The notes under the pieces were generated by a model. The model ran no database searches, was not told the origin of the DNA, and saw nothing but the letters and a program-made list of their open reading frames with translations. From NCBI GenBank assembly GCA_027319565.1, contig DAHVNA010000001.1:139526-203525 (forward strand): 64,000 nucleotides of DNA, given 5' to 3'. Position 1 is the first letter of the stretch. Every line of letters begins with the position of its first letter. Shown here one piece after another: positions 29,358-59,271 of this stretch. The DNA is from Elusimicrobiota bacterium (GTDB lineage Bacteria; Elusimicrobiota; Elusimicrobia; UBA1565; UBA9628). Both the position numbers and the translations under genes were made by a program.

Positions 29358-30422
29358 ATGATGAAGGAAAAACTCTTCAAATTCCGAAAATTCCGATGGG
29401 GAATTGGGTTTCTCGCGTTATGGATGGGGTTTCCCGTTTGGGCTCTTGAGTCTTCCGCGCGCTTTGAAGAGCCGGTTCCAATTAATTTACATTCTTTTTC
29501 CAATGCCGTCCAACCCAATGATGTTTTGCCCGATCTGGGAAATTCTCCGAAAGAGATTTCTTTCCCAAGCGAAATTTTTCATAGAAAAGAGCGCCTTTTA
29601 AGTCCTCAGGTTCCTTTAGCTAGACCCCATGATCTAGCAGACAACGATCCTGCTCGGGGCTTTGTGCCATTTGAGAGAGTTGTCGAAAATTCCCCAAAAT
29701 CCGTATTTCAGACGAAAACCGCTTCTCGCCTCAATCAGGAGTCGTTTAAAAGTCCTGTTAGCGGCGGGGTTCTTTTTGACGGCGCTCAAGAAAAAGAGGG
29801 GCCGTGGAAATACGATTTGGAGGGAGCGTTGTGGTTTTCCGGTCAACAGGCGCAACTGATAGGTTCCGGTTCTTATGGGCGCGTTTTTGCGCATCCCGCT
29901 AATCAAGACTGGGTCGTTAAAGTGATTCACGGCAGCAGGATTTACGGGGCGACCGCGTTTTATGAACATCCGGAATTTTCCAATCTTGAGAAATTGTCTC
30001 AAGCCCATCTTTCTCCGCGCCCGATAGATACGGGTCTCATAAATGGCATTCCCTATATTATTTCAGAGCGGGTGCATGGCGCGACCTTAGGAGACATCAT
30101 TGGCGAGAAAAAATTTGGCATTAGGGAGTTAAAATTATTGCGGCAGATGTTTAACTCTCTTTTAAAGAGCCGGTTTTCCATCGTCGATCTAACCCCCAGC
30201 AATGTCATGTTGGGGCATACGGCGTCTAATCCAGAACCCCAAGCCTATATTATTGACGCGGGGCTTTTAACTTCGATTAGCGTTTTTGCTAATCCTTTTA
30301 TTGATATCCAAGATTTGGTGAAAGATTGCAACGATTTGCTACGCCGATCAGGGAGCGTTCGAAAAATCGAGTTTGCGCGCCGGGAGATTGGTCATAAAGC
30401 CGCGCTTTTTTTCTCGCGTTAA
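29358..30422 (+). CDS. Signal-peptide-bearing protein kinase-like protein
   Basis: Signal ..GFPVWA; low-complexity leader to VLFDG; IGSGSYGRVF, VVK, DLTPSN, IIDAG. Confidence 0.8.
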   Translation: MMKEKLFKFRKFRWGIGFLALWMGFPVWALESSARFEEPVPINLHSFSNAVQPNDVLPDLGNSPKEISFPSEIFHRKERLLSPQVPLARPHDLADNDPARGFVPFERVVENSPKSVFQTKTASRLNQESFKSPVSGGVLFDGAQEKEGPWKYDLEGALWFSGQQAQLIGSGSYGRVFAHPANQDWVVKVIHGSRIYGATAFYEHPEFSNLEKLSQAHLSPRPIDTGLINGIPYIISERVHGATLGDIIGEKKFGIRELKLLRQMFNSLLKSRFSIVDLTPSNVMLGHTASNPEPQAYIIDAGLLTSISVFANPFIDIQDLVKDCNDLLRRSGSVRKIEFARREIGHKAALFFSR

Positions 30423-30426
30423 TTTA

Positions 30427-32640
30427 ATGAAGATATCTGCTCAAATTCTGTGGAGCCTTTTTCTTTTGATTTCTGCTCCCTTTTCTTATGCCGCTTCCGG
30501 CTGGGTTGAGGCGGATCCTGCGGGAGGCTTTTCAAAATATAACCCGGCGACCGTCGACCGGATTGAGTTTGGGAATCAATTTCAGAATCAGGGAATGGAT
30601 CAATGGTGCGATCGATTCCCTCTCATCGTGCCCCTCAGTCAAGACTTTGTCAACGGTTTGGGGCCGGGAAGTTTGTTGGTCGGGGGAACTTTTTCGGGAA
30701 CTAGACAATTTCTCCGCTATCCCGATGGCAGTCTTGCTCTCAACGATCAATTGGAAATTAAATTTCAAAGCGGATATGCGATGACCGCCGTCAAGAGCGC
30801 GGCAGGCATTTCTCAGAGGGCTTTAGGGGTTTACGCGGGGGTTTCCGTCGATGGGCAGTCGATTGTCACCCGTCCGCTTCACACCGCTGACTCTTGCAGC
30901 CAGGTCAAACGCCTTCTCAACGTGCTTGACTTTAAAACCGTTCTCCCGCTCAATGCCAAGAGAATTTCAAAAATGGAAGTGGGGGAATTGTGGGAAATTC
31001 CGCTGGTCTATCAGATTTCTTTTGAGCCTTTGGACGCGGCCCAGGTCCTGGAAACTCCGGGGTCTTTTACGCCTTTTTCCGCTTATTTCGCGATAGGCTT
31101 GTCTAAAACCGCGGACCCCACCGTGACTCTTTTTAGAAAATCTTCGCACGATTTGCGCCTCAAAATCCATTTCGATCAATTTAAGACCGTCAGCGCTTCC
31201 GGCGGAGCGGTCGTAGGGCCGATTCCAGCCACCGATATTGGAACTCCGGGAATTGAGTCGCTTTTATCGAACATGCTTCCGAATCTTATCTCGAATCCCG
31301 CGCTTAAACTTTTAACGCGAGAGGTGGATGATTATCTCGCGGCCCAGATTGCGGTTTTAGTCTCTCAAGAGCGCGGCGGGCAAATTTTACTCGAATACCG
31401 CTTGGATCCCGCCAATCAAAAACAGATGGAAGAACTCGCCAAGCTTTTGAAAGGCGATTTGAGCGTTCTTTCAGCGATGAAAAATCTGTTGGTCGACTGG
31501 AGGGGACGAGAAAACAAAGATATCGAAAAAACCCTCAACGCTTTAAGGCAAAGGCATTTGGAACATTTGCGCGTTTCCGAATCCTTGTCCGGTTTTGATC
31601 ATTATCGACAGAGTCTTAAAACGCTCAATTTTTCGGTTCCGTTTCTTTTTAATTACAGCGGCTCGGTCGCGCGGAACACCGATCATTATGTGATCGCAGC
31701 GCCCCGAGGTCTTGAGTTCTATTCCTATAAGTCTCAAAAACAATCGAATTGGGGATTTTTAAAGCCCCCGATTGTGGGCTCTTCGTTGAGGCATAATCAG
31801 AGTCAAAGCGTGCAATCCCTTGTTTTTCTCAATGCGCGCCACGCTTCTAAAAATAAGGATGAGCAATTAATAGTTTATAACCGGGAAACCGGCATTTTGC
31901 GCTTGGGAGATATCCAGCAGGAGTTGTCTCGAATTGATTCTTTGATTGCCTCTATCGGGTCTCTTCAAAATTTTCCGCCTGAGGCGGAAATTCCCAAAAA
32001 ACTCAAGGATCTTGTTTCCGGTTCCGAACATAAAGGCTATGCGGAGTTAAGCGTGATTTTGACTCCAAAAGCGATTCATCAAATTATTTCTTCTTCCTCG
32101 GAATCTGTTCTCCGTGCCTTTGAGCTTTCGCTTTCCGGCGGCAACCGCGCGGTCTTTGACTATGCCCTCAAATATTCAAGATTATCGGCCGATGGCAGCC
32201 TGCATTTTAAGCGTTCTTTTGTCCGACACTTGGACGAACTGAATTTGCCGGATCCAACCCGAAAAAGGCCGGAAATGGTTTTATCCAAGGCCGGGGTTTT
32301 ATTTCACGAAGTCGAGCTTCTAATTTCTGATTTAAAGAGAGCGAAAAACATTCCTTCTCCGGAACAGCAATCAAAAGAGATTCTTAAGATATTGGACGGC
32401 AGTTCCCATTGGTTTGAGTCTTACTCTGGATATGGCCGGGTGGTTGAAGTTCTGTTGCGTCTTGCGCCGCGAGACGGGGTGGCCGCCGATTTGTTTTTCC
32501 ATGTAGACAAAAAGAAAACCGATTCCTCAAACCCGAGCAAGCGCTATTTATTTAGCCCAGATATTCTCAGCCAGGCTTCTCTGCGCGCGATTAGCGCCGT
32601 TGAGCGTTCCTTTATGCCGCCGACTTCGCTCAACGATTGA
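30427..32640 (+). CDS. Large exported hypothetical protein (about 737 aa from ATG 30427)
   Basis: MKISAQILWSLFLLISAPFSYA signal peptide; long open frame directly after the kinase. Confidence 0.8.
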   Translation: MKISAQILWSLFLLISAPFSYAASGWVEADPAGGFSKYNPATVDRIEFGNQFQNQGMDQWCDRFPLIVPLSQDFVNGLGPGSLLVGGTFSGTRQFLRYPDGSLALNDQLEIKFQSGYAMTAVKSAAGISQRALGVYAGVSVDGQSIVTRPLHTADSCSQVKRLLNVLDFKTVLPLNAKRISKMEVGELWEIPLVYQISFEPLDAAQVLETPGSFTPFSAYFAIGLSKTADPTVTLFRKSSHDLRLKIHFDQFKTVSASGGAVVGPIPATDIGTPGIESLLSNMLPNLISNPALKLLTREVDDYLAAQIAVLVSQERGGQILLEYRLDPANQKQMEELAKLLKGDLSVLSAMKNLLVDWRGRENKDIEKTLNALRQRHLEHLRVSESLSGFDHYRQSLKTLNFSVPFLFNYSGSVARNTDHYVIAAPRGLEFYSYKSQKQSNWGFLKPPIVGSSLRHNQSQSVQSLVFLNARHASKNKDEQLIVYNRETGILRLGDIQQELSRIDSLIASIGSLQNFPPEAEIPKKLKDLVSGSEHKGYAELSVILTPKAIHQIISSSSESVLRAFELSLSGGNRAVFDYALKYSRLSADGSLHFKRSFVRHLDELNLPDPTRKRPEMVLSKAGVLFHEVELLISDLKRAKNIPSPEQQSKEILKILDGSSHWFESYSGYGRVVEVLLRLAPRDGVAADLFFHVDKKKTDSSNPSKRYLFSPDILSQASLRAISAVERSFMPPTSLND

Positions 32641-33375
32641 TTAGAACCCGACGCCAATGTTAAGCTCGTAGCCGGAAATGCCATGGAATATCATGTAGGC
32701 TCCTCTGAGATCCACAAAGGGGAAAGGGGTGATGTCGATGCCGGCCGCCAAACGCGAACCCGTGGCTGTTGCCGCGAGCCCATCAAGGCCAGCGATTTGG
32801 GCCGTGTTGATTGTCGCTCTAGTGTCGTCAAAGCCCGCGCCGATAAAGGGCTGAACGATCGGCAGTCTCCAGATCGCGCTGAGGTCTCCTGATAAATGAG
32901 TCATCGAAAAGGCGCTGTCGTTGATCATGTCTCCCATCGCGGAAACCTCGACCGTCGGTAAAAAGAAAAGGAGGCGGGATGGAGTGAAGAGTCCATAGCG
33001 AAGGCCTCCACCTAAAACCGTCGCGCCATCGTAGCTAAATCCATGAGCTACGACGTCTAAATGAAAGGGAAGCCCTAATGTTCCCTGAACCATTGGCAAG
33101 CCGAACGCCCCGGCGCCGCTGTTTTTTAGGACGATGTCATTTGAATTGGGGGCGGTTTGCGCTACTCCAACAAGTCCCAGGGAAAAACCGGGGAAACCAT
33201 CCGGCGCTGTCGGGTCAAATTCCGCGCCTCCAAGAACTCCTCCGATATCGAGCGCAAAAGGCTTGAGCGCCTGGGAATTGATGAGTGACGAAAATTGATT
33301 AAAGGGTCCCGCCCAGGACCATAGCGGCAAAGATAACGGCATTAACGCCAACAAAAACAGAAATATTTTTTTCAT
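32641..33375 (-). CDS. Putative outer-membrane beta-barrel protein
   Basis: Signal peptide, alternating Gly/aromatic strands, terminal YELNIGVGF beta-signal. Confidence 0.7.
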   Translation of the reverse strand: MKKIFLFLLALMPLSLPLWSWAGPFNQFSSLINSQALKPFALDIGGVLGGAEFDPTAPDGFPGFSLGLVGVAQTAPNSNDIVLKNSGAGAFGLPMVQGTLGLPFHLDVVAHGFSYDGATVLGGGLRYGLFTPSRLLFFLPTVEVSAMGDMINDSAFSMTHLSGDLSAIWRLPIVQPFIGAGFDDTRATINTAQIAGLDGLAATATGSRLAAGIDITPFPFVDLRGAYMIFHGISGYELNIGVGF

Positions 33376-33408
33376 GAAGAAAGGATATCAAAATTTTAGG
33401 AGAAATCT

Positions 33409-34611
33409 TTAATGAGATTTGAAAATGTCGGCTAAGGTCGTTAGTATGACGATATTTTTTGCCCCGGAATAGGACAGGCCGTTGATGAGGCGCATGGCAT
33501 GTCTCCAGGATTTTTTGCAAGTATTGAGCTCGTTTGAATATTTGAGAATTTCATTGCGGATTTCTTGCCGCATCGTCTTTGACCAATAACGCTTGGCCCT
33601 AGAATAGTTATCCTTGGCCTTTTGATATTTTTCCATGGACAATAAAAATTGCTTATGGCCGGAGTCGAGCAAATCCAGAACTTTTTCTTTGAGCGTTGGG
33701 GTGGGCAAGATTTCCAGTTTTTGCTTAGCTTTTTCCATTTCCACTTCCAGACGAGCTTTGAGAATCAGCGGTTCAGGAACGCTTCTTAGTTTTTTGGATA
33801 GACCGATAGCCTGGGTCGTCCACAGCCACCATTTGGTGATATCGAACTGATGCCAGTAAATTCCATTTCTCCAATCCGCCGGAAATTTGTGATGAAAATT
33901 GTGATAACCCTCGCCGAATGTCAAAGGGGCTAAAAGCCAGTTGTCGCGAGCCGAGTTACTCATTGAATAGGGCTTTCCGCCCCAAACATGGGCGGCGGAA
34001 TTAATCAGGAAGGTCATATGATGAACCACGACCATTCTAAAAAGGCCGCCCCATAAAAACCCGCCGAGAGGGTGTCCCAAGATTAGGCCCAGCATTGTCG
34101 GCAGTCCAAAAGAGACCGCGACGACTAAAAAAGGGTACCAGCGGTCTTGCCAGAGAACAAGAGGATCTTTCGTTAAGTCCGGGGCGTTTTTCTTTCTCTG
34201 TTCCGCGAAGGGATCGGTGTAAAAAATCCACCCCATATGGGCGTAGAAAAAACCTTTTCCGATATTGTAGGGATCTTTTTCGCTGTCGACATACCGGTGG
34301 TGATCGCGGTGATCCGAGGCCCAGCTAAGAACTGAATTTTGGGCCGCCGCCGCGCCAAAAATGAGATAGAAAAGCTGGAGGGGTTTGCCGCATTCATAGC
34401 TTCGATGGGAATAGTAGCGGTGGTATCCGGCGGTGATAGAAAGACCGGTGGCCAAATACATAAGCGCGAACACGAAGAGATTGGCCCATGGAAATCCGTA
34501 ATGGATTAAATACCATATCGCTCCCAAGAGAGCGGCGGTTGGAGTGGATGTCAGCCAAAAGAGATTGAGGTAGTTGATTTCTCTTTTTGGCTGTTGTGGT
34601 TGGGTCTCCAC
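33409..34611 (-). CDS. Membrane fatty-acid (delta-9 type) desaturase
   Basis: His boxes HRYYSH, HRDHHR, GEGYHNFHH; INSAAH. Confidence 0.93.
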   Translation of the reverse strand: METQPQQPKREINYLNLFWLTSTPTAALLGAIWYLIHYGFPWANLFVFALMYLATGLSITAGYHRYYSHRSYECGKPLQLFYLIFGAAAAQNSVLSWASDHRDHHRYVDSEKDPYNIGKGFFYAHMGWIFYTDPFAEQRKKNAPDLTKDPLVLWQDRWYPFLVVAVSFGLPTMLGLILGHPLGGFLWGGLFRMVVVHHMTFLINSAAHVWGGKPYSMSNSARDNWLLAPLTFGEGYHNFHHKFPADWRNGIYWHQFDITKWWLWTTQAIGLSKKLRSVPEPLILKARLEVEMEKAKQKLEILPTPTLKEKVLDLLDSGHKQFLLSMEKYQKAKDNYSRAKRYWSKTMRQEIRNEILKYSNELNTCKKSWRHAMRLINGLSYSGAKNIVILTTLADIFKSH

Positions 34612-34618
34612 AAAGGGC

Positions 34619-35932
34619 CTAGTAGCGGTAATTCTCGGTCTTGTAAGGTCCTTTGGGGTTAATTCCTAGATATTCCGCCTGTTTTTGATTGAGTTGCGTC
34701 AGATGAGCTCCGAGCTTATCTAAATGGATTCGCGCCACTCTCTCATCGAGCAGTTTGGGCAGGGTATAGACCTTGTTTTCGTATTTCTTATTCTCGCGAT
34801 TGGACCATAATTCGATCTGGGCGAGAACTTGGTTGGAAAACGAGATGCTCATCACAAAGGAGGGGTGCCCCGAGGCGCATCCAAGGTTCACTAAGCGTCC
34901 TTCGGCCAGGACGATCAAAACTTTTCCATCCGGCCAGGTGAATTGATCGACCTGCGGCTTGACCGTCGTTCTTTTGAGTTTTTTGTCGTTCATTAAAGAA
35001 GCGACATCAATTTCAAGGTCGAAGTGCCCGATATTGCAGACGATCGCGTGGGATTTCATCGCGTCCATATGCTTTTTAGTGATGACATCGCAGCAACCGG
35101 TGGCGGTCACGAAAATATCTCCGATGGGAGCGGCTTCATCCATCGTGATGACGGAAAAGCCTTCCATGGAGGCTTGGAGAGCGGTAATAGGATCGATTTC
35201 GGTCACTAGAACTCGGGCCCCCATTCCTTTAAACGATTGCGCGCAGCCTTTGCCGACATCTCCATATCCGCAGACGACCGCGATTTTCCCCGCGATCATG
35301 ACATCGGTGGCGCGTTTAATGCCGTCCAAAAGCGATTCTCTGCAGCCGTAGAGATTGTCGAATTTAGACTTGGTGCAGGAATCATTGACGTTAATGGCCG
35401 GAACCTTGAGTTTTCCTTGGGCCTCCCGTTGATACAGGCGATGAACCCCGGTCGTGGTCTCTTCCGACAAGCCGGCGATATCTTTTAAGAGATGGGGATA
35501 CTTGTCGTGAATAATGTTTGTCAGGTCGCCGCCGTCATCGAGCAGAAGATTGGGGCCGAGTCCGCCTTCAAATTGGAGAGTTTGCTCAATGCACCAATCA
35601 TATTCCTCAAGAGTTTCTCCCTTCCAGGCAAAAACGGGAATTCCCGCTTGGGCAATCGCCGCGGCGGCATGATCTTGAGTCGAGAAAATATTGCAAGAAC
35701 TCCAGCGGACTTCCGCCCCCAATTGAATCAGGGTTTCAATTAAGACAGCCGTTTCAATGGTCATATGGAGGCATCCGGCGATTCGTGCCCCTTTGAGCGG
35801 TTTTTTGCCGCGATATTCCGCCCTTAAAGACATCAGCCCTGGCATTTCCGCTTCGGCTAAAGCGATTTCCTTTCTTCCCCAATCGGCAAGAGTGATATCT
35901 TTGACTTTGTAATCCATGGCGGCGGTCGGCAT
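34619..35932 (-). CDS. ahcY: S-adenosylhomocysteine hydrolase (start reassigned to ATG 35932)
   Basis: [53 protein letters not shown] before ATG 35932. Confidence 0.97.
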
Positions 35933-36030
35933 AAATTTCTCCTTCCCAAGGCGAGACTTGGGCATTTTTTTACTAGCACTAACCACTTTATTGTAGCAAA
36001 ACTCGCTATTGATGAGATACAATAAATGTC

Positions 36031-36624
36031 ATGAATAAAATCAACAGCCGTATTGCCGAGGAATTGACGGAAAGCGGGCGGGTCATCTCTCAGTCCGCTC
36101 AAATGGCCCCTTTGCTTGAGAAAGTAGCCGAAGAATTGGTGTCTTGTTATCGTCGCGGCAACAAGATATTGACTTTTGGAAATGGCGGATCGGCTTGCGA
36201 TGCCCAAAATTTCGCCGACGAACTCGTTGGCCGTTTCGAGCGCAATCGCCCACCCCTTCCGGCATTGGCTTTGACCACTAACACTTCGGATCTCACCTCA
36301 ATATCCAACGATTTCGGTTATGAGGTTGTCTTTGCAAGGCAACTTGAGGCCCATGCCAAGCCCGGAGATATCGCGGTGGCGATATCGACCTCGGGAAACT
36401 CCAAAAATGTCCTTTTGGCCGCAGAAGCGGCAAAAAAATTAGGGCTTTTAGTCATCGGTCTTTCTGGAGAAAGCGGGGGGAAACTCAAAAATATCGCTGA
36501 CTTCTGCGTTTGCGTCCCGTCTAAGACCGTCGCGCGCATCCAAGAGGCGCATATCGCCATCATTCAAATCTGGTGCGGGATTATTGAGGACTCTCTTTTC
36601 CCGAATGCGCCAAAAGCCCATTGA
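36031..36624 (+). CDS. gmhA: D-sedoheptulose-7-phosphate isomerase
   Basis: GNGGSACDAQ, SNDFGY, STSGNS, RIQEAH. Confidence 0.95.
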   Translation: MNKINSRIAEELTESGRVISQSAQMAPLLEKVAEELVSCYRRGNKILTFGNGGSACDAQNFADELVGRFERNRPPLPALALTTNTSDLTSISNDFGYEVVFARQLEAHAKPGDIAVAISTSGNSKNVLLAAEAAKKLGLLVIGLSGESGGKLKNIADFCVCVPSKTVARIQEAHIAIIQIWCGIIEDSLFPNAPKAH

Positions 36625-42838: not shown

Positions 42839-42902
42839 CGCTCGGCCCTTTTTAGCCCCAAGGGTTTTAACAAAACAAAATTTAAATGGTATTCTGTTTA
42901 AA

Positions 42903-47891: not shown

Positions 47892-47893
47892 AG

Positions 47894-48902: not shown

Positions 48903-48908
48903 AACAGA

Positions 48909-49328: not shown

Positions 49329-49486
49329 TTTTTTTCTTTCATCTGTCCGGACAGCCGACATCAACGCCTCCTTCTGTCTTTTTTCATCATTCTGGCAGTT
49401 GGTAAAACCCGCAAAGACCCATTGATGGAGCGGAAAAATGGGGCTACACTCTTTGGGTTGCGCGTTTTCGCGGAAGGGAGCCTCGC

Positions 49487-49903: not shown

Positions 49904-50229
49904 AGACATGAGGGAAATATGGATAGTCCTCACAATGTGGGTAAAACATGAGGGGAAAGGTGATGAAGAATAAGTCTAATTTGAGAGAATAGAAATAAGT
50001 TTCTATTCTGTATTTATGCTTCCTCATCTCCGGCGGCGGCGATGATCTGACCCCGCCAATCTGGAAAGACGACAGCGGCCAAGAGCCTTTCTTCCCATTA
50101 TTTTGACCTTGAGCAACCCGAGGACCGCCTCCGGTTGGATATACGCTGGGATGAAATTTCCCGTCCCGCCTTCGCGGCGATTCAAAAGCTTAGGCAGGAA
50201 GATTGTGCCCGCCGCAAAATCTCCGCTTG

Positions 50230-51351: not shown

Positions 51352-52150
51352 CGAGTATCTCCACGGGGAACTTTTTTTGAAGCGATTGCAAGTAGTTGTC
51401 TAATTTCTGTTTTTCAAGAATTTGGATAAAACGATCTTTATATTTTTCAAAAACCACTTTATGCTGAGAGTCTTTGCGGATGACGTGATATCCAAATTTG
51501 GTCTTAATCGGCCCGCTGAGTTCTCCTACCCGCATTTGAAAAATGAGATCCTGAAGTTCGGGAATAATCTCTCCATAGAGGGCGGAAGGCATTTTCCCGC
51601 CTTTGACGGCCGAACCGCTGTCGAGAGAATATTTCCGCGCGAGCCGTGCGAAATTAGCGCCGCGGCGTATTCGCTTAAGAAGGGTTTCCGCGTCTTTTGG
51701 AGATGAAACTAATATCTGGCTAAAGACGACTTCATATGGATGTCTTTTCCAATAGGATTTCGCTTCATCTTCGCTGACCTTGGTGATGCGGGTATCCCTT
51801 AAGTTTTTTTCCCAATCTTGAATCAACAGGTATTTTAAGGCTTCGTGGAGGCGCAATTTTTCTTCTTCTTTGATTTTAGACGCTTCTTTTAGATATTCGG
51901 GAGACTCAGGTACTTTAGAGGCTTGCGCGGCGGCCAATTCTAATTTATCGCGGATGAGAATGTCCAAAAACTGTTTTCTTCCGTCCGGGGTCATCACGTA
52001 ATTTTGATACCCCGGGTCCACCTCGTTAAGGGCTTTTTGAAAATCCTCTTGGGTAATCGACAGAGGCCCTACCGTCGCGATCACGGCCTGGCGCTTCTGA
52101 CAAGCGGTTAGAGAAAAAACCGCCAGGCTGATTAAAAAAATCCTTCTCAT
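51335..52150 (-). CDS. PpiC-type peptidylprolyl isomerase lipoprotein (PrsA-like)
   Basis: Lipobox LTAC; QILV, FARLARKYSLD..GG, TKFGYHVI. Confidence 0.9.
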   Translation of the reverse strand: MRRIFLISLAVFSLTACQKRQAVIATVGPLSITQEDFQKALNEVDPGYQNYVMTPDGRKQFLDILIRDKLELAAAQASKVPESPEYLKEASKIKEEEKLRLHEALKYLLIQDWEKNLRDTRITKVSEDEAKSYWKRHPYEVVFSQILVSSPKDAETLLKRIRRGANFARLARKYSLDSGSAVKGGKMPSALYGEIIPELQDLIFQMRVGELSGPIKTKFGYHVIRKDSQHKVVFEKYKDRFIQILEKQKLDNYLQSLQKKFPVEILDEQFK

Positions 52151-52167
52151 AATCAGTATTTATCCTA

Positions 52168-55100
52168 TCATTTTTCAAAGAACGCGCCGAGCCACTCAAG
52201 AGCGCTTTGACCCTTAAGAGAAATGACGAGTCCGTCTCCCTGCTTGGAACTGGTAAAGCGAATATCTTGCGAATATTTTTGGGTCCAACGTTGAATCTGT
52301 TCCGGGGCGATTTTTGCGGCAGAGCCGAAAATCAGCTCAAGCTCGTTTTTTCGTTGGGAAATTTTGACGATTCCGATTTCGGCGGCCGATATTTTTATCC
52401 TAATGAGATTGAAAAGATTGATCACCGGATCGGGAAGAGGCCCCGCTAAGTCTTCCATTTCCTTTCGGATGGTTTCTAAATCCTCTTTTCTCGCGGAACT
52501 AAGCCTTCGGTAAAGTTCCAAGCGCTGCCTTTCCTCGGGGAAGTAGTCTTGGGGAATAAAGGCCGATAGCGGGAGATCTAGCGTCGTTTCTTCCGTTGGG
52601 AAGCGCGCGCTGGGGCTTTTCTTCTGGAGACTAGAGACTTCCTCCGTTAAAAGTTGGCTGTAGAGAGAAATTCCCACGTCGCGGACAAACCCGTGTTGGC
52701 GGCGTCCCAAAAGGTCTCCGGTTCCGCGAATCTCCATGTCTCGCATCGCCAGTTGCGCCCCGCTTCCCAAGTGGCCAAATTCCTTGAGCGCCTCAAGGCG
52801 TTTTTGCGCTTCTTCCGATATTCGGGAAAATTCCGCGTCCTTGGGATAAAGAAAATAGCAGAACGCTTTTTTTGATTCGCGTCCGATTCTCCCGCGCAAT
52901 TGATAGAGTTGCGCTAGTCCGAACTCATGCGCGTCTTCGACGAGAAGAGTGTTCACCGATGGAATATCAAGCCCCGATTCGATAATGGTAGAGGCCACTA
53001 AAACGTCAAATTTCTTTTTGTAGAAGTCCCACATCGCGCTTTCAATCTCAGAGCCTTTCATCTGCCCGTGAACGATGACAAATCGAGTCGACGGCATTAA
53101 ATCCTTGAGGTGATCCGTGGTTTCTTTCAGGGTTCTGACGCGGTTGTGAACATAATAGGCTTGTCCGCCGCGGGCGATTTCCTCTTCGATGGCGCTAATG
53201 ACAGTTTCTTCGCTCCAGGGCAAAATGCGCGTCGTAATCGGCAAGCGTCCGGCGGGGGCGCTCTGGATAAAAGAGAGAGATCTCAGTCCCGACAATGCTT
53301 GCCCGAAGGTTCGGGGAATTGGAGTGGCCGACAAGGAAAGAACGTCTAGCGTCGCGCGAAAGCGCTTTATTTTTTCTTTATCTTCGACTCCAAAGCGGTG
53401 TTCTTCATCGATAACAGCCAACCCCAAATCCTTAAACCGGATATCTTTTTGAAGAAGCCGCGCGGTGCCAATGACGATGTCGACACGCCCCTCTGTCAGC
53501 TTTTCAATGACGGCTTTTTGCTCTGAGGGGCTTTGAAAGCGGGTGAGAAGACCCAGGCTTATGGGATAATCGGCGAATCTTTTTGAAAAACTCCGGAAGT
53601 GTTGCTCGGCTAGGATGGTAGTCGGGACCAGAACGCAGGTCTGTTTGTTTCCCATCGCGCATTTAAAGGAGGCGCGCATCGCCACTTCGGTTTTTCCAAA
53701 TCCGACGTCTCCTAAAACTAAACGGTCCATCGGCTGGGGCTTGGACATGTCTTCTAATACCTCGGCAATTGCGCGCGCTTGATCGGGAGTTTCTTGATAG
53801 GGAAATTCTTCGGCAAACTCCCGTTCGAGGGGATTATCCTTGGGGAAGGCATATCCCGGAGATGAGGCGCGTTCGGCTTGGGTTTTAAGGAGCTTTTCGG
53901 CCAGTTCTCTGACGCCTTCCCGCACTCGTTCCTTGATTTCTTCCCAGCGTCTTTGATCGAGGCTTGAAAGACGCGGGCGCCCGGAAGAGCCCGAGACGTA
54001 TTTTTGTATGGCTGAGAACTCGCTCATCGGCAGATAGAGAACGGAGTCTCCGGCAAATGAAAGCCGGGCGCATTCAACCTGTCCAAAGCCGGGCGAGCGA
54101 ATCATTTGAAGCCCGCCGTAGCGGGCGATCCCATAATCGCGGTGAACGACATAGTCTCCTTTTTGAAGATCCGAAGAATGGAGGCGGATCGGAGAGGGAA
54201 TCGGGTAAGACAAGGCGCGGCGATATCTCCGATTGAAAATTTCCGAGGAGCTGTAGAAAGCGACTTTAAATTTCGGATGGATAAAACCGTTTCCAATTTC
54301 GCCGATCAAAAATTGGCAGCTCTCTTTGAGCGAATTGGGGAATATCTCTTGAATTCTGGAATTCTCGCCTTGGTTAAGACTGTAGATAAAAACCTTAAAT
54401 CCTTCTTGATTGAGTTTTTGAATTTCCTTAAACGCCTGTTCGGCGATTCCGTCCGTCGGCGGGTTGGATCTCGCCCCAAAATCGATATCTTGACTGGAGG
54501 TCTCAAGAAGGCGTCCCGCCCATATCCAACGCTTTTCGGGCGCGGTAAAATTTTCTGGCAGGACAAGACCGTCTTCCGCAATCCACAGCGCGTTTGAGAG
54601 AAAACTTTGACCGAGCCAATTCCATAATGGCGCGGAATCGATCTGGGCGCTTTCGGAAGAGGCGGGAACGGCTTGGGCTTTTAAAATAGTTCCAGAGCTC
54701 ATTTGCGTGCCGGGGTCAAAGGAGCGCAGGGAAGCGATTTTATTTCCATCAAAAAGAATTCGCGTAGGATTTTCGGAATTGGGGCTATAAAAATCAAGGA
54801 TCGCTCCGCGAATCGCGAAATCACCGGGAGATTCGACGAAATCCGAACGCAGGTAACCCAATTGGATTAAATTTTGAGCGGCTTCATCGCGATTGAGCGC
54901 GGTGTCAACAGAGAAAGCGAGAGTTCTCTGTCGGAAAAACTGCGGAGAGGGAACTTTGGCCTCCAGGGCTTTAAGATTTAAGACAAATAAAGCGGTGTCG
55001 GGATTAATGAGCGAAAGGTTTTTGAGCCTTTGCGGCTGGTCTTCTCCAAAAACAGCGGAGATTAATTTTAAATTTTTTGGAAACAAGGGAGTCAGCGCGG

Positions 55101-55260
55101 AAAAAGCGGAGTTGATTTCTTCAATGCGCTCTTCCTCGTTGACGAGAAACACGAGCGGACCGTTTAAAGCCGGGAGAAAAGAAATTTCTTTTTTGGAAAG
55201 ATAAAGTTGCGCGAGGTACGCCCAGGCGGAAGCGGTCGGCAGTCCGATCAGGCGCGGCAT
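52168..55260 (-). CDS. mfd: Transcription-repair coupling factor
   Basis: GDYVVHRDYGI, ETPDQ, GDVGFGKTEVA, DEEHRFG, SATPIPRT, QLRGRIGR, RDMEIRG. Confidence 0.97.
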   Translation of the reverse strand: MPRLIGLPTASAWAYLAQLYLSKKEISFLPALNGPLVFLVNEEERIEEINSAFSALTPLFPKNLKLISAVFGEDQPQRLKNLSLINPDTALFVLNLKALEAKVPSPQFFRQRTLAFSVDTALNRDEAAQNLIQLGYLRSDFVESPGDFAIRGAILDFYSPNSENPTRILFDGNKIASLRSFDPGTQMSSGTILKAQAVPASSESAQIDSAPLWNWLGQSFLSNALWIAEDGLVLPENFTAPEKRWIWAGRLLETSSQDIDFGARSNPPTDGIAEQAFKEIQKLNQEGFKVFIYSLNQGENSRIQEIFPNSLKESCQFLIGEIGNGFIHPKFKVAFYSSSEIFNRRYRRALSYPIPSPIRLHSSDLQKGDYVVHRDYGIARYGGLQMIRSPGFGQVECARLSFAGDSVLYLPMSEFSAIQKYVSGSSGRPRLSSLDQRRWEEIKERVREGVRELAEKLLKTQAERASSPGYAFPKDNPLEREFAEEFPYQETPDQARAIAEVLEDMSKPQPMDRLVLGDVGFGKTEVAMRASFKCAMGNKQTCVLVPTTILAEQHFRSFSKRFADYPISLGLLTRFQSPSEQKAVIEKLTEGRVDIVIGTARLLQKDIRFKDLGLAVIDEEHRFGVEDKEKIKRFRATLDVLSLSATPIPRTFGQALSGLRSLSFIQSAPAGRLPITTRILPWSEETVISAIEEEIARGGQAYYVHNRVRTLKETTDHLKDLMPSTRFVIVHGQMKGSEIESAMWDFYKKKFDVLVASTIIESGLDIPSVNTLLVEDAHEFGLAQLYQLRGRIGRESKKAFCYFLYPKDAEFSRISEEAQKRLEALKEFGHLGSGAQLAMRDMEIRGTGDLLGRRQHGFVRDVGISLYSQLLTEEVSSLQKKSPSARFPTEETTLDLPLSAFIPQDYFPEERQRLELYRRLSSARKEDLETIRKEMEDLAGPLPDPVINLFNLIRIKISAAEIGIVKISQRKNELELIFGSAAKIAPEQIQRWTQKYSQDIRFTSSKQGDGLVISLKGQSALEWLGAFFEK

Positions 55261-56169
55261 TTAGGTTAAGGCGACTTGGCGCGCGAGCTCTTTGAGAAAT
55301 GAGGATCTTAGGCTTGTGTCCTTGCAAAGAGACTTGAGATGCCGGGCCTGGCTTCCGTCTTCGCGGGCCAAGAAAACCCGCATTTCAATTCCCTCGGGCT
55401 TAATCTCGGCAAAGGCGCCCAGCGGAGTCGAGCATCCGCCGCCGACCAGGCGCAAGAATTCTCTTTCCCATTCAACCGCGATTCGGGTCGGCCCGTGATC
55501 GAGAATTTGAGAAAAAAGACGCAGATCGTCTTTGAGGCGGGATTCAATGGCCAAGGCGCCTTGCCCGGGGGCCGGGACCATCGCGTCAAGTTCAATGAAG
55601 TGAGCCAGGGGAATTTCCCGCTTAAGCCTCTTGAGTCCTGCGGCCGCTAAAATAATTCCGTCCAAGGATTTTTCTTCCAATTTTTTTAGCCGGGTGTCTA
55701 CGTTGCCGCGAAGAGGTGTTGTCGTCACTCCCGGAAAAAGGATTTTGGTCTGGATTTGTCTTCTCAGGGAAGAAGTGCCGATTTTGTGTTCCGCCTTAAG
55801 CTCTTTCCATTTAAGCCCGTCGCGTCCGATAAAAACGTCTTGCGGGTTTTCCCGTTCCGGGTAGGCCAAGATATGGAGTTCTTCCGGAATTTCAGCGGGC
55901 ATGTCTTTCGCGCTGTGGACGGCTAAATCAATTTCTTTTTTGAGCAGGGCTTCTTCGATTTCCTTGACGAACAGCCCCTTGGTCCCTTGGGGAGACAAGG
56001 AGGCGGCATGCGCTTCCTGGGGGGAATGATTCTGAAACAAATCTCCCGAGGTCTTGATGATTTTGAGTTCGGTTTCTACAGAGGGGTCTATTTCCTTAAG
56101 TCGGCTCTCAACCCAGTGGCTTTGGGCCAGGGCCAGGGGCGAGCCTCGCGTTCCAATTTTTAGCTTCAC
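55261..56169 (-). CDS. hemC: Hydroxymethylbilane synthase
   Basis: GTRGSPLALAQ, KGLFVKE, VHSAKD, GTSSLRR, RGNVDTR, GGCSTP. Confidence 0.97.
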   Translation of the reverse strand: MKLKIGTRGSPLALAQSHWVESRLKEIDPSVETELKIIKTSGDLFQNHSPQEAHAASLSPQGTKGLFVKEIEEALLKKEIDLAVHSAKDMPAEIPEELHILAYPERENPQDVFIGRDGLKWKELKAEHKIGTSSLRRQIQTKILFPGVTTTPLRGNVDTRLKKLEEKSLDGIILAAAGLKRLKREIPLAHFIELDAMVPAPGQGALAIESRLKDDLRLFSQILDHGPTRIAVEWEREFLRLVGGGCSTPLGAFAEIKPEGIEMRVFLAREDGSQARHLKSLCKDTSLRSSFLKELARQVALT

Positions 56170-56209
56170 TTAATCATTGTAGAAAATTCCAATTTTCTAT
56201 AATCACGAG

Positions 56210-57280
56210 ATGCCGCAAAAACCGTTTCTTAAATGGATCGAAATTGATTTAAAGGCCATTCGCTCTAATCTTGATTGGATTATTTCCGAGTCAAGGCCCC
56301 TGACCCAGGTGATGGCGGTTTTAAAAGCGGATGCATATGGGCACGGGATGATTCCCGTGGCGAGAGAAGCGGTCAAGGCCGGCGTTCCTTTTATAGGGGT
56401 TTTAAGCGTGGATGAGGCCCGGCAGCTTAGAAGCGCGGGAATTTCTCATCCTCTTTGTTTAATGGCGCCGATTTTGCCGTCCCTGGCCGAAGAGGCGGTT
56501 AAACTTAAAACTTCGGTGACGGTCGATAATCTGGAGCAGTTGCGCGCGCTCAATGCCAAGGCATCCTTTTCTCATCCCGTTTCCGTCCATATTGATTTGG
56601 ATTTCGGCCTTGGCCGTTGGGGAATTTCTCCGCGGCGGATAGCTTGGTTTGTCTTGAGTCTCAAGCGCTTTAAGAAAATCCGTTTTCAAGGCCTTTCCGC
56701 TCATATCGATTATATTCCCGGGAAAAACGCAGTCGAGGCGGAGGAAAAATTGCGCGATTTTAACCAGATCGCTCAGCGGCTTAAAAAAACGCATCCGGGT
56801 TTAATTTGTCATGCCGCCAATAGTTCTGTTTTTCTTGATTTTCCTCATTGGAGAATGGATCTGGCTCGAATCGGGAATTTAATTTACGGAATTAACGCCG
56901 CGAAATCAAAACCGGTTCCGCTTAAAAATCCCTGGCGCTTTCAGGCGCGAATCGTCCATATCCGCGCGATTGCCGCTGGCGAGTCCGTGGGATACGCGAG
57001 CGCCTACGTTTCTCCGAGGGAAATGAAGGTCGCGACCCTCTTGGCCGGATACTCCGATGGAATCACGATGGAGCCCGCCGAGAGGCTGATTCGCCTGGGT
57101 TCCGGCTTTGAGTATTGGGGAATGATGGGGAAAAACAAGACGCCGTTTATCGGCGGCTGCGGAATTTCCCATCTGCTGGTGGACGTTAGCGAAATTCCCC
57201 GCGCTAATGTCGGAGATATCATCACTCTTCCGGCGCGCCGCACTGCCGCTCATTCCCGGATTCCGCGGGTCTACATTTAA
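56210..57280 (+). CDS. alr: Alanine racemase family PLP enzyme (divergent)
   Basis: VLKADAYGHG (PLP Lys), HAANSS, GESVGY, GYSDG, RIPRVY. Confidence 0.8.
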   Translation: MPQKPFLKWIEIDLKAIRSNLDWIISESRPLTQVMAVLKADAYGHGMIPVAREAVKAGVPFIGVLSVDEARQLRSAGISHPLCLMAPILPSLAEEAVKLKTSVTVDNLEQLRALNAKASFSHPVSVHIDLDFGLGRWGISPRRIAWFVLSLKRFKKIRFQGLSAHIDYIPGKNAVEAEEKLRDFNQIAQRLKKTHPGLICHAANSSVFLDFPHWRMDLARIGNLIYGINAAKSKPVPLKNPWRFQARIVHIRAIAAGESVGYASAYVSPREMKVATLLAGYSDGITMEPAERLIRLGSGFEYWGMMGKNKTPFIGGCGISHLLVDVSEIPRANVGDIITLPARRTAAHSRIPRVYI

Positions 57281-57297
57281 TGATAGACAGCTCTCAA

Positions 57298-57365
57298 CTG
57301 GGTCTTTTGCCGGGAAAGCTCTAGGCCTTTTGGCCCTTGGGGTCTGTTGTATTGTTCGATACAAT
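57298..57365 (+). promoter_or_regulatory. Double GGCC-box promoter (copy B)
   Basis: CTGGGTCTTTTG (57298), CTAGGCCTTTTGGCCC (57321), TACAAT (57360); spacing identical to copy A. Confidence 0.7.
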
Positions 57366-57435
57366 GATAAGGCCGGATAAAACGGCGCGGGAAAGTGCTT
57401 AAAATCGCTTAACTCATATAAAAAGGAGAATTCCC

Positions 57436-59271
57436 ATCAAAAAAATAACTGCCTGGGCGCTGGCGGCGACGTTGACGGTTTTATCTCCGGGGCTTTCTTC
57501 TTATCAGGCCTTTGCGGCGGAATTTTCAGAACCAAATCCTGAAATTTCTTCTCTTGAGTTGCGCAATCCTTCCGCTTCTAATCCTCTCGGTCAAGCTCCT
57601 TCCATTGAAGAATTTCAAGACCTCTCTGTCGAGCCAAAAACTGGCGCGGTTTTGCCGGCGGCAGAAGCGGCGGAAACAAAGGTTTTAGAGTCCAAGCCTT
57701 CTCTGCCCCAGGCGCGCGCCTTACCCAAGAACACTGCGAAAACTGCGCCCGCTTTTTTCCCGACTCCGAAAGAATCTTTACCGCAAGGCCGCCGGTTTTT
57801 TAGGAGTCTTGTCAAAAAGATTTCCGGTGTATCCCCGGCGTCAAGAAAAATTTCACTGGGCGTTCTTAACCGCCTCTTTGATCGGCAAAAAAAATCCAGG
57901 TCTTTATCTCTTCCAAGCGTTCAAGATATTTCAAGACCTTCAGCTCACAATCTCGCGCTTAAAGCGGGGCTTTCCGGCGGTGTTGAAAAGCCCGAAGTTC
58001 GACTGCCCATTGAAAGCGCGGGAAACTTGGAAGACGCTCCTTCGCCCAGAAAATTTAAATGGCTGAGAGAAATTCAAGAGTTGCCTTCCCAATTTTTGTG
58101 GAAATATGTTCCGGGTTGGTCTATCGCCGCGATGGGGGGAGAAATGCAGGCGGTGGCTCTTCCGGTGTTTACCGCGCAGGTCTTTGGCCTTTCCCAAGCC
58201 ATTATCGCTTCCGGCGTCAATTTGATTGCCCGCATTCCCGGCGCTTGGACCGGAGCTTTTTTTGTCGGCCATTTTAGCCCCAAGGTCATTAACAACGCCG
58301 CCTTGATTATTTCCGCTTTAAGCGGCGGACTTGTTCCCGCAGCCATTTTTCTTCATTTATCCCATGCCGCTCTTTTGGGAGCGTTTTTGCTGGGGTCGGC
58401 TTTGTCGGGGTTGGTCTACGGCGCGACGCGGGGAGTGACCGAGAATTTAATTCCTCCGCTTTTGATTGCGGATAGGTCCCAGCGGGAATTTGGCCTTAAC
58501 TACGCCTATCAATGGGTGGAGTTGAGTTCGATTGCGATGGCGATGATTTCGGTCCCGCTTCTTCATGTTTTCGGTGGAAGCGTAATGCTGGGAATTTCCA
58601 GTTCCTTTTTCCTGATTTCAACTTTATTTTACGCTTCTTTAAAGCTACATAAGCCGAACGCTTCTCCCGCTTCTCCGGTAGCGCTCGATAAAACTTCCGA
58701 GAAAGGGCTTTCTTGGCGAAATTATGTTCCGTTTGTGTTCTTTCGCTTAATGCATTTTTCCCTGTATGCGGTTTTTGCCGCCGCCATTTCCCTGGGAATT
58801 CTTCACTCGGACAAAATGACCGGAAATATTATTGGGTCTTACGACTTTGGAAGCTGGGTGTTCGGGTTTTTAGCGACCATGGCTCTTCTTCCTAAAAAAG
58901 GGGAGAGGTCTTGGACATTTTTTGGAGTGGGGACGGCCTTGGCGTTTTTGTGGGCCAGCTCTCTTCTTTCCATACCCGCTTTATCGATGGTCCTTGCGGG
59001 GGTCATGGGCGGCATGATCATGATTAATTCCAACAAATGGATGAGTCTCTACCAAGAAAAACTGCATCAATCCAAACTCAAAAATCTCTCTAAATGGATG
59101 ATGACGGCTAGTATCTTGGGGACTCTCCCTATCTTTATCGCCGCCAGCCTAAGCCAAATTTTCCCCGCCTGGGCCGCTGTTTTGACGATGCCCCACATCA
59201 TCATCTTCGCCAATATTTTGGTGACGATCCTTGGGATTTTAACCCTTTTAGCCTTCAAATCCTCCCGCTAA
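57436..59271 (+). CDS. MFS-like transporter with signal peptide and about 200-aa low-complexity leader; probable ATC start at 57436
   Basis: About 12 hydrophobic segments in two halves; frame open upstream of TTG 57472 giving (M)KKITAWALAATLTVLSPGLSSYQAFA; AAGGAG 7 nt before ATC. Confidence 0.75.
   Translation: MKKITAWALAATLTVLSPGLSSYQAFAAEFSEPNPEISSLELRNPSASNPLGQAPSIEEFQDLSVEPKTGAVLPAAEAAETKVLESKPSLPQARALPKNTAKTAPAFFPTPKESLPQGRRFFRSLVKKISGVSPASRKISLGVLNRLFDRQKKSRSLSLPSVQDISRPSAHNLALKAGLSGGVEKPEVRLPIESAGNLEDAPSPRKFKWLREIQELPSQFLWKYVPGWSIAAMGGEMQAVALPVFTAQVFGLSQAIIASGVNLIARIPGAWTGAFFVGHFSPKVINNAALIISALSGGLVPAAIFLHLSHAALLGAFLLGSALSGLVYGATRGVTENLIPPLLIADRSQREFGLNYAYQWVELSSIAMAMISVPLLHVFGGSVMLGISSSFFLISTLFYASLKLHKPNASPASPVALDKTSEKGLSWRNYVPFVFFRLMHFSLYAVFAAAISLGILHSDKMTGNIIGSYDFGSWVFGFLATMALLPKKGERSWTFFGVGTALAFLWASSLLSIPALSMVLAGVMGGMIMINSNKWMSLYQEKLHQSKLKNLSKWMMTASILGTLPIFIAASLSQIFPAWAAVLTMPHIIIFANILVTILGILTLLAFKSSR

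Follow-up and report, generated by a model that had tools for sequence, protein, structure and literature searches.

A shared signal-plus-linker leader on unrelated cargo proteins of Elusimicrobiota, a possible bipartite signal for delivery into a partner cell

Introduction

Plasmodium PEXEL, oomycete RXLR and the signal-plus-transit peptides of complex plastids are bipartite targeting signals. The leader described here resembles them in that a secretory signal would be followed by a second address of 100–150 residues, carried by unrelated, housekeeping-type cargo destined for another cytoplasm; unlike the leader, they are encoded by eukaryotes and direct proteins either from a host into its organelle or from a parasite into a eukaryote, and no sequence likeness was seen. 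The Paulinella crTP, another bipartite peptide of this eukaryotic kind, is, according to the part of the source available, about 200 aa long, with the first 50 aa cleaved and part 2 thought to fold (PMC12176269).

In bacteria, MafB-N, Microscilla-N and the Amoebophilus APD1/APD2 regions offer a parallel, combining a signal, a shared lineage-restricted region and diverse cargo (PMC3482391, as far as its available text goes). These are, however, conserved globular domains read there as surface anchors, APD with a lipobox, whereas the leader is of low complexity with one short motif and has a lipobox cysteine in 2 of 121 cases. In place of the toxins described for those domains in the sections available, it carries transporters and AAA proteases as well as second signal peptides. 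Membrane effectors of T3SS and T4BSS share with the leader cargo segments whose hydrophobicity falls just short of causing insertion in the producing cell, but they are described in the available portion of PMC6110835 as one-step substrates that lack a Sec signal, enter eukaryotic membranes and mostly have few segments; the leader proteins have a Sec-like signal, their genome yielded no FHIPEP gene, and whole bacterial-type transporters are among the cargoes. No published description of the leader was found in the literature searched.

Two leader proteins in the window

The window, a 64,000-nucleotide stretch of an Elusimicrobiota contig, contains two proteins that begin with this leader (Table 1); none of the 9 other ORFs inspected in it is a third. 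As the sequence-only reading had proposed, each combines a signal peptide, a Pro/Ser/Glu-rich linker and an LFD motif, with linkers of 109 aa in the kinase-like protein and 119 aa in the MFS-type protein, in which Pro, Ser and Glu together make up 33% and 34% of residues, respectively, against 19% in the proteome. The same reading placed both genes behind a GGCC-box promoter, and a 38-bp two-site element indeed precedes each.

Table 1. Coordinates of leader, cargo and upstream features of the two window genes
Feature	Position	Strand	Details
Kinase gene, 38-bp two-site element ('GGCC box')	29287..29324	+	pattern match
Kinase gene, -10-like hexamer TATACT	29348..29353	+	23 nt past element, shortly 5' of start codon
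Kinase-like gene	29358-30422	+	354 aa
Kinase signal peptide, Sec-like	29358..29444	+	residues 1-29; cleavage site inferred
Kinase linker	29445..29771	+	residues 30-138; low-complexity, Pro/Ser/Glu-rich; conservation poor
Kinase LFDG motif	29772..29783	+	L139-F140-D141-G142
Protein-kinase-like cargo	29805..30422	+	Gly loop, VK lysine, D-x-x-x-x-N and DAG motifs
MFS gene, 38-bp two-site element	57299..57336	+	pattern match
MFS gene, -10-like hexamer TACAAT	57360..57365	+	23 nt past element
MFS AAGGAG ribosome-binding site and non-AUG start ATC	57423..57438	+	sequence; orthologs
MFS signal peptide	57436..57516	+	residues 1-27; PG..Y.A c-region; cleavage site inferred
MFS linker	57517..57873	+	acidic Pro-rich part, Ser/Ala/Lys-rich part, basic segments predicted to be helical, in that order
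MFS LFDR motif	57874..57885	+	L147-F148-D149-R150
MFS-type transporter cargo	58087..59271	+	about residues 218-611; segments weakly hydrophobic

In the kinase-like protein, a basic n-region and a hydrophobic stretch precede the linker. F140, D141 and G142 of the motif are invariant in 6/6 aligned homologs, and the conserved cargo starts at W150 in the homolog alignment. Profiles match the kinase only weakly (NCBIfam MAD6 kinase, E=8e-5; Pfam YrbL, E=2e-6), a sequence search of the domain against solved structures gave 0 matches, and structure prediction was of low confidence (mean pLDDT of 35 for the kinase, with 6 sequences as input). The protein is an atypical member of the leader family, ranking 98 of 1810 with a profile built from other genera.

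The MFS frame is open on the forward strand from 57436, an ATC codon 7 nt downstream of AAGGAG, and a non-AUG start (ATC or ATT) is kept in all six copies, the window's own and those of 5 orthologs. Its signal peptide is of the kind typical for the leader family, and the FD of its motif is retained in the 5/5 orthologs shown. Basic linker segments at about residues 114–128 and 134–146 are predicted to be helical in a low-confidence model; the protein alone was predicted with a mean pLDDT of 45. The match to the MFS profile is weak (E=0.003), and a homolog 49% identical to the window protein carries PF07690. The last segment is strongly hydrophobic (-2.9).

A leader family in one order

The two examples on which the modular leader had been proposed extend to about 22 proteins of this genome, a set that omits as weak candidates a HEAT protein, two FtsH proteins without FD, PepC, HAD-SemiSWEET, PLD and three unknowns of 315–587 aa. 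An enrichment of FD(G) among signal-bearing proteins had been named beforehand as the check. In a motif-blind class, for which just a signal-like N-terminus and the make-up of the linker were considered and in which neither window protein was placed, FDG lies 105–185 residues past the signal in 11 of 39 proteins, against 6 of 293 other signal proteins (p=1e-7; signal peptides called by our own hydrophobicity rules rather than SignalP), so that the proposal stands on the point at which it could have fallen. With stricter cut-offs, FDG is found in 9/30 and 4/17 proteins; it is the top enriched 3-mer of the class, seen 9 times where 0.46 are expected.

Across 10 ortholog sets, identity at the motif's three positions is 0.78–1.00, compared with 0.31–0.73 in the linker, from which the motif appears to be under selection. 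It is better written [LI]-F-[DTE]-[GRN], with a helix before it. When each of 19 leaders was left out of the profile in turn, 9 came first among 1792 proteins and 13 were within the top ten; the other 6 seeds generalise poorly (ranks 16–1405).

The leader recurs in other genera. Within the order, profile matches occur in 43/47, 10/10 and 1/2 genomes of its three families. Across the class Elusimicrobia, the leader is present in families f1, f2, f8, f30 and f32, and no match was found in f5 (47 genomes), f6, f7 or f12. The leaders of a double-AAA FtsH and of an 832-aa unknown are found on ankyrin repeats in P0010 and P0012 (our labels), and that of the GH15 protein, missed by the profile from other genera, sits on a different cargo in the equally labelled L147. 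The leader is modular and exchanged between unrelated cargoes. Its alignments have many indels, its composition is of low complexity, and no Pfam or NCBIfam family matched more than one of 37 leaders at E 0.1.

Profile A1, built from this genome and run against 1.84 billion representatives, gave 15 matches, of which 14 are close relatives; the remaining one, an 1844-aa protein with repeated FDG, was rejected as unrelated. A word-indexed search with profile A2 gave 9 matches from 8000 candidates scored. Searches of such reach therefore probe presence outside Elusimicrobiota weakly. In the ESM Atlas, the best scores, 0.83 and 0.86, fall in clusters mostly of Elusimicrobiota and are taken as leads only.

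An upstream element shared with other secreted proteins

The 38-bp element, whose second site is the palindrome GGGCC-N4-GGCCC, has 29 matches in the genome and 0 in each of 2 shuffles. A TANNNT hexamer stands at an offset of 21–25 from it at 22 of 28 sites, against a background of 4%, and FDG occurs in 8 of 25 genes selected by the element compared with 12 of 433 other signal proteins. About 12 ordinary secreted proteins without a linker also lie behind it. The element is probably the activator site of a secreted-protein regulon; with a -10-like hexamer adjoining the start codon, the kinase transcript is probably leaderless. A sigma-54 reading of the element was dropped on visual inspection, as its GG-to-GC spacing departs from the sigma-54 consensus.

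Cargo proteins and their topology

Beyond the kinase, the leader is found on ClpB, FtsH, HtpX, PepN, glycogen and nucleotide enzymes, MscS, PspA, MFS, ABC and CDF transporters, M50, GH15 glucoamylase and signal peptidase II. Of 99 leader-family members, 63 matched no Pfam model over the portion that was scanned. Housekeeping paralogs without the leader exist for PepN, FtsH, ClpB/C and LOG. No membrane segment was found after the leader in the kinase and ClpB cargoes, both of which need ATP.

In the ABC cargoes (4/99), the membrane domain starts at model position 4–8. Charges flanking the first segment detected after the leader were compared in 130 proteins, of which 103 have such a segment (the family set here excludes eight own-genus loci, and the weak own candidates apart from PLD were retained). 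More K/R lie before the segment in 71 and after it in 20, with 12 ties; controls gave 13 against 13 for other signal proteins and 60 against 30 for signal-less proteins, in a test that is crude, often picks a later segment and has a small (30) and mixed signal-peptide control. By this charge pattern, the membrane cargoes look N-in.

Their segments are also weakly hydrophobic: the median over the four best segments is +1.1 in 5 own proteins and +1.0 in 51 from other genera, compared with -0.14 in 60 own housekeeping proteins. The family set for this comparison, as for the PG count below and the other-genera profile, excludes nine own-genus loci. Among family-matched pairs, four of them ABC pairs with a single comparator in common, 10/13 agree and 3/13 (1 MFS, 2 M50) are opposite. 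Second signal-like segments past the motif are clear by pattern in 5 of 122 proteins, and by eye are present also in MscS, the double-AAA FtsH and a 532-aa protein.

A proposed delivery route and its alternatives

We tentatively favour, at a little less than an even chance, a bipartite signal that delivers proteins into the cytoplasm and inner membrane of a partner cell. The promoter element would turn on the secreted-protein set jointly, and the N-terminal signal would carry the precursor through the producer's own Sec channel, where cargo segments, being marginally hydrophobic, would slip through rather than stop. The linker, which is disordered, and the helix that closes with (L/I)F(D/T/E)G would be read by a second machine, for which the numerous type IV filament systems (T2SS/T4P/Tad) are the most plausible candidates, and the cargo would be handed into the partner cytoplasm upon contact. 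Cleavage at the motif or close to it would probably take the leader off. Soluble cargoes such as the kinase, ClpB, PepN and the glycogen and nucleotide enzymes would act where ATP and substrates exist; membrane cargoes (MFS, ABC, CDF, FtsH, HtpX, M50) would insert N-in into the partner inner membrane; and those needing an outside N-terminus, such as MscS, one FtsH and some secreted domains, would use their second signal in the partner. The outcome would be that a partner, in all likelihood another bacterium, is broken down and drained while alive.

The step beyond the periplasm, which the sequence-only reading had also suggested, thus finds indirect backing in the soluble kinase and ClpB cargoes, the N-in, weakly hydrophobic membrane cargoes and the second signals. 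Counting against delivery, no route is known to take a transporter of 12 helices across Sec in soluble form, the last segment of the window MFS protein is strongly hydrophobic, and the proteases, the glucoamylase and many other cargoes could function in the periplasm.

The candidate machinery is abundant in this genome, with 4 secretin and 13 T2SS/T4P/Tad ATPase matches over the cut-off and an annotated Tad locus. The Tad ATPase, the one component profiled across genomes, does not discriminate as a dedicated leader machine: present in 324 of 401 genomes of the phylum, it is also common in family f5 (44/47), which gave no leader match, and therefore does not track the leader.

It is unlikely that the cargoes go only to the periplasm or surface, with an ordinary Sec signal followed by a linker and FDG helix that serve as tether, docking motif or removable propeptide and keep the cargoes inactive or scaffold-clustered in the cell's own envelope, as with MafB-N and the Amoebophilus prodomains. 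Such a destination would suit signals of typical build, with an n-region charge of +2 to +6 and an acidic mature start in 18/18 of those listed and an AxA-like site in 104/121 leaders (both by our own heuristics), as well as the numerous hydrolases and the linkerless proteins driven by the same element; surface anchoring is also the published reading of signal-plus-prodomain effectors in the part of PMC3482391 available. It would, however, leave the nucleotide-binding domains of the kinase, ClpB, ABC and two-helix FtsH cargoes facing the side that lacks ATP, and it is opposed by the N-in charge bias and by second signal peptides, useless in the periplasm. If the cargoes do stay in the envelope, the leader is a variant of signal-plus-prodomain effectors.

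Quite unlikely is a one-step route to the same partner destination with no periplasmic stage, in which the whole leader of 150–170 residues, with its PG..Y.A signal, diverts the protein from Sec to a dedicated producer-to-partner channel. Polytopic passage through Sec would then no longer be a problem, and the available text of PMC6110835 documents one-step T3SS/T4SS substrates that are likewise marginally hydrophobic. The signal is distinctive, with PG in 92/99 family members against 26/365 other signal proteins of the genome and PG..[YW].A in 63/99 against 0/365, an enrichment that is partly circular because the profile favours PG signals. Yet PG is present in just 10/22 own leaders, the AxA-like site is retained, and the genome encodes 1 SecA and 1 signal peptidase I and, at 91.65% completeness (which leaves some room), gave 0 matches to FHIPEP, the T3SS/flagellar export gate.

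Very unlikely in our view is a second cytoplasm of the cell's own, whether an internal daughter cell, a spore-like compartment or a vesicle, supplied under a developmental regulon. The topology arguments suit any second cytoplasm, the cargoes are co-regulated, and they amount to a near-complete bacterial envelope and housekeeping kit (FtsH, ClpB, HtpX, PspA, signal peptidase II, MscS). A daughter with its own genome could, however, express the leaderless genes; fast cargo swapping between sister species and the share of members without a Pfam match are more effector-like; and no such compartment is described in the literature examined.

Coincidence, that is, low-complexity N-termini with a chance tripeptide, could draw on leader alignments with a mean column identity of just 17–22% and on the seeds that fail to generalise. 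It has a negligible probability, being refuted by the motif-blind enrichment, the near-invariance in orthologs and FDG among element-selected genes, and opposed also by the recurrence in other genera and the shared promoter element.

Implications

Among the leaders, 0/121 have the twin-arginine consensus and 2/121 a PEXEL-like RxLx[EDQ] overlapping the motif, and none of the leader proteins matched FlgD-Ig/CHU_C, though the genome has FlgD-Ig/CHU_C proteins. Together with the lipobox, globular-prodomain and T3SS-gate results above, these counts set the leader apart from those known signals. It marks a large co-regulated exported class in a little-studied order, which the profile allows to be catalogued, and accounts for otherwise puzzling gene models in which ClpB, FtsH or MFS proteins bear a signal.

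If delivery into a partner is correct, a new secretion route, surprising to secretion specialists, would bring ATPases and complete membrane proteins of many helices into a different cell. This would be organelle import in a bacterial form, operated by the invader. We consider it possible, if not quite probable, that the members of this Elusimicrobia order live as predators or parasites without having been recognised as such, and install working bacterial machines in a living partner through a leader-keyed pathway, some being re-exported there by a second signal peptide. Described members of what is presumed to be the same order are called aerobic heterotrophs, not predators (PMC9476967, PMC8357290). 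With delivery, Elusimicrobia that are common in groundwater, soil and freshwater would have to be assigned a different way of life.

The model would also offer a testable account of the signal-plus-cytoplasmic-domain puzzle of the giant proteins of Omnitrophota. Like the leader proteins, these combine a signal, membrane segments and cytoplasm-type metabolic domains; they occur in suspected predators and lie near T2SS/T4P/Tad genes (10.1101/2023.11.21.568195; 10.64898/2026.06.07.730766, each in its available part). In contrast to the leader family, no shared leader or motif is described for them in the accessible text of either preprint ('leader' and 'motif' both occur 0 times in 10.64898/2026.06.07.730766), and their domains are read in the sections available as acting outside the cell, unlike the proposed leader cargo. 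No internal motif repeats were found in two giant leader proteins of our genome. Elusimicrobiota are enriched in huge proteins, according to the available part of PMC11573180, and several leader proteins are 2,400–5,800 aa long.

A leader shared by unrelated proteins

The sequence-only reading had proposed that a kinase and an MFS protein in the window (C23:139526–203525 of a 2.03-Mb source genome, 91.65% complete) share a leader of signal peptide, Pro/Ser/Glu-rich linker and LFD motif; this is borne out, and the set grows to 22 own-genome members (alignment A1), with the motif at residue 130–188 of the ORFs as called. The linker of the kinase-like protein comprises 109 residues (Pro+Ser+Glu 33%, compared with 19% for the proteome) and leads to LFDG at residues 139–142; F140, D141 and G142 are invariant in its ortholog set, and the conserved cargo starts at W150. 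Read from its ATC start, the MFS protein has a signal peptide, a 119-residue linker (Pro+Ser+Glu 34%) and LFDR at 147–150. The ATC/ATT start is kept in five orthologs, with in-frame stops upstream in most copies, and could, speculatively, hold expression down or make it depend on IF3 levels. The assignments are probable ones, suggested for the kinase by weak profile matches and visible kinase motifs invariant in six homologs, and for the MFS protein by a profile match (E=0.003) and by PF07690 in a homolog of 49% identity.

Features of the window (plain positions) and of source-genome contigs (prefixed positions)
Feature	Position	Strand	Description
38-bp element, kinase gene	29287–29324		Two sites, the second palindromic
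38-bp element, MFS gene	57299–57336		Two sites, the second palindromic
Kinase-like ORF	29358–30422	+	354 aa; basic N-terminus, then hydrophobic stretch, linker, LFDG
MFS ORF start	57436	+	ATC 7 nt after AAGGAG, frame open from there; listed ORF starts TTG at 57472
MFS non-AUG start region	57423–57438		ATC/ATT after AAGGAG, conserved in 6/6 copies
Protein directly after kinase gene	30373–32640		755 aa, signal-bearing, without leader linker
Homolog of 755-aa protein	C23:40325–43015		896 aa (24%, E=2e-36); same 38-bp element upstream
Caspase-domain protein	7099–9165		Signal- or lipoprotein-like; ankyrin repeats, caspase (C14) domain
Operon	14711–23777		TPR protein, FlgD-Ig/CHU_C/OmpA protein, ExbB, two ExbD, TonB
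Giant leader protein L008	G000:C56:31701–45680		4659 aa
Giant leader protein L004	G000:C25:11276–18517		2413 aa
Tad locus L250	G000:C45:74003–82466		Fused CpaE–CpaF ATPase, short secretin
Locus L252	G000:C27:6456–8507		FliG-domain and TPR protein, adjoining MotA/MotB-like genes

Among 1,810 non-overlapping ORFs, a class was defined blind to the motif, by signal-like N-terminus and linker composition alone; neither window protein entered it. The expected enrichment of FD(G) among signal-bearing proteins was found: FDG lies 105–185 residues past the signal in 11/39 class proteins and in 6/293 other signal proteins (p=1e-7), as against 3/240 downstream windows of the same proteins. It persists under stricter cut-offs (9/30 and 4/17), and FDG is the top 3-mer (9 observed, 0.46 expected). 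With leave-one-out profiles of 19 hand-picked leaders, nine held-out members rank first of 1,792 and 13 rank tenth or better (the MFS protein first, the kinase fifth); six perform poorly (ranks 16–1405).

The 'GGCC-box' promoter placed upstream of both genes resolves into a 38-bp element with 29 sites genome-wide, the pattern having no match in two shuffled genomes. TANNNT follows at offset 21–25 in 22/28 sites (background 4%; the window −10 box is 23 nt later) and a start codon at offset 33–38 in 19/28, a geometry like that of a leaderless transcript whose activator would bind near −42. Almost all downstream genes encode signal peptides. Directly behind the element are 14 of the 22 leader genes, a partly circular count given that the pattern was derived from leader genes; the others have a single site or a later operon position. 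Roughly a dozen of its targets encode secreted proteins that lack the linker. The element also occurs in Elusimicrobiaceae.

Conservation and range

The motif is under selection. Of ten ortholog sets from sister genomes, nine are informative, because the anchor in the HAD set is the enzyme's own motif; identity is 0.78–1.00 at the three motif positions and 0.31–0.73 in the linker, where indels are many. The leader is also modular, as supposed from the window: those of the double-AAA FtsH and of an 832-aa uncharacterised protein precede ankyrin repeats in the protein matches P0010 and P0012, respectively, a third has shuffled modules behind it, and the GH15 leader precedes different cargo at locus L147.

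The leader is real and order-wide, the order presumably being UBA1565. Profile A1 matches other genera, most alignments stopping short of the motif; among f1 and f2 family matches outside the own genus, [FY][DE][GNA] was read by eye at ~140–180 in 11/20, and several others carry related forms, FTG and LSG among them. Profile A2, built from 37 leaders, matches 43/47 genomes of f1, 10/10 of f2, 1/2 of f3, 3/4 of f8 and 7/118 of f4, and none of f5 (0/47) or f12 (0/89) among the best candidates scored, at most nine per genome; absence of a match may reflect divergence rather than true absence. In 83 proteins outside training, FDG lies within residues 120–210 in 19, compared with 2/163 later windows; for F[DE][GNAR] the counts are 34 and 9. 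These figures are partly circular, since the motif is part of the profile. In the anchored consensus, a helix that is hydrophobic near −24, −17, −4 and −1 precedes F-[DTE]-G. A profile of 98 other-genera leaders, themselves first found by own-seeded profiles, fills the first 12 places of 1,810 own ORFs with own members (12/22), ranks the kinase 98th and misses GH15.

Among 80 listed promoter-pattern loci, 37 have Elusimicrobia titles and one Rhodoblastus; many of the remaining 42 have orthologs of the source genome's genes. One protein match to the leader family is labelled Elusimicrobiota. At L033, L035 and L038, short leaders (motif ~residue 72–125) follow the same DNA element, so linker length can halve; two sit on PLD-nuclease-like cargoes.

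Cargo proteins and their topology

Own-genome cargoes are PepN, HtpX, subtilase, two MFS, GH15, GH13, double-AAA FtsH, CAAX-HtrA, MscS, LOG, ClpB, kinase and uncharacterised proteins of up to 4,659 aa, with two FtsH, PepC, PLD and HAD-SemiSWEET as weaker members. Leaderless PepN, FtsH, ClpC, ClpB and LOG paralogs are present, and the leader-bearing versions are thus extra copies. A Pfam scan of residues 170–650 of 99 other-genera proteins identified 13 M50, 7 MFS, 4 ABC membrane domains, 2 GH13 and one each of GH77, CDF, PspA, signal peptidase II, CAAX, S8, trypsin, histidine phosphatase, amino-acid ligase and BatA; 63 had no match in that range. The giants L008 and L004 have no or negligible Pfam match, and relatives in other genera reach 5,785 aa. 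The cargoes at L182, L215, L236, L240 and L247, several of them M50-bearing, have acidic internal repeats rich in Gly and Asp past the motif.

Past the signal peptide, neither the kinase nor ClpB has a membrane segment; export through Sec would thus strand these ATP-using enzymes in the periplasm. Profile matches to MFS, ABC and CDF begin at model position 2–11, soon past the motif; these families are N-in, which conflicts with a periplasmic leader. Around the first segment detected past the leader (in 103/130 proteins, by a crude detector that often takes a later segment), K/R is richer before than after in 71 versus 20 (12 ties). The counts are 13 and 13 among other signal proteins (n=30), and 60 and 30 among signal-less ones (n=116). 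A second signal-like segment past the motif is clear in 5 of 11 pattern matches (122 proteins), and by eye in MscS, double-AAA FtsH and a 532-aa membrane protein; that of MscS, kept in its ortholog L118, fits the N-out topology of this family. On a simple biological hydrophobicity scale (median of the best four segments), own leader cargo segments are weakly hydrophobic (median +1.1, n=5, versus −0.14 for own housekeeping proteins, n=60; p=0.005), as are those of other genera (+1.0 in 51 proteins versus +0.25 for 7 neighbours). Weaker hydrophobicity is seen in 10/13 family-matched pairs, one MFS and two M50 pairs going against it. Marginal hydrophobicity of this sort is described for T3SS/T4SS membrane effectors (PMC6110835).

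Relation to known systems

Pfam and NCBIfam families each match at most 1/37 leaders; a lipobox occurs in 2/121 leader proteins and a Tat motif in none of the 121. PEXEL and RXLR are analogies. Closest in logic are MafB-N, Microscilla-N and Amoebophilus APD1/2 (PMC3482391), which unlike the leader form conserved globular domains and are interpreted as anchoring to the surface. Paulinella crTP offers an analogy of function alone (PMC12176269), and the Omnitrophota giants pose a similar puzzle, with no leader described in the sections available (10.1101/2023.11.21.568195, 10.64898/2026.06.07.730766). Unannotated huge proteins are abundant in Elusimicrobiota (PMC11573180). Apparently the targeting leader is undescribed so far, no description having been found in the literature searched, mainly open-access papers. 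One member of the presumed same order was obtained from an amoeba culture that was fed cyanobacteria, and it cannot synthesise seven amino acids (PMC9476967); in PMC8357290 a member is reported to be aerobic, the accessible text mentioning neither symbiosis nor predation.

A possible delivery route

Several independent but indirect signs bear on the destination, and we tentatively favour two-step delivery into a partner cell, a reading with somewhat less than an even chance. The leader protein would be exported by Sec, its helix–FDG element read by a second machine and the cargo transferred into another cytoplasm; the leader would be removed, and Sec/YidC of the partner would insert or re-export the cargo. 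That the partner is a bacterium is suggested by the bacterial type of the cargo (FtsH, PspA, MscS, signal peptidase II, amylomaltase). A leader acting instead as envelope tether or propeptide is unlikely, as the ATP-using kinase and ClpB would end in the periplasm; delivery in one step is also rather improbable, and a second compartment of the cell's own as destination is a slim prospect. Chance can practically be dismissed given the FDG enrichment.

For the second step of two-step delivery, a type IV filament system is likeliest: the source genome has one SecA, one signal peptidase I, four matches to secretins and 13 to T2SS/T4P/Tad ATPases, and no FHIPEP gene was found at 91.65% completeness. 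Tad ATPase, present in 324/401 phylum genomes including reduced gut lineages, does not alone track the leader. The Tad locus L250 is listed in the table; L252, in a genome without a flagellar export gate, would be an orphan motor. The caspase-domain protein is a possible candidate for cutting after the Asp of FDG, and the operon of ExbB, ExbD and TonB may encode a T9SS-like or TonB-energised envelope system.
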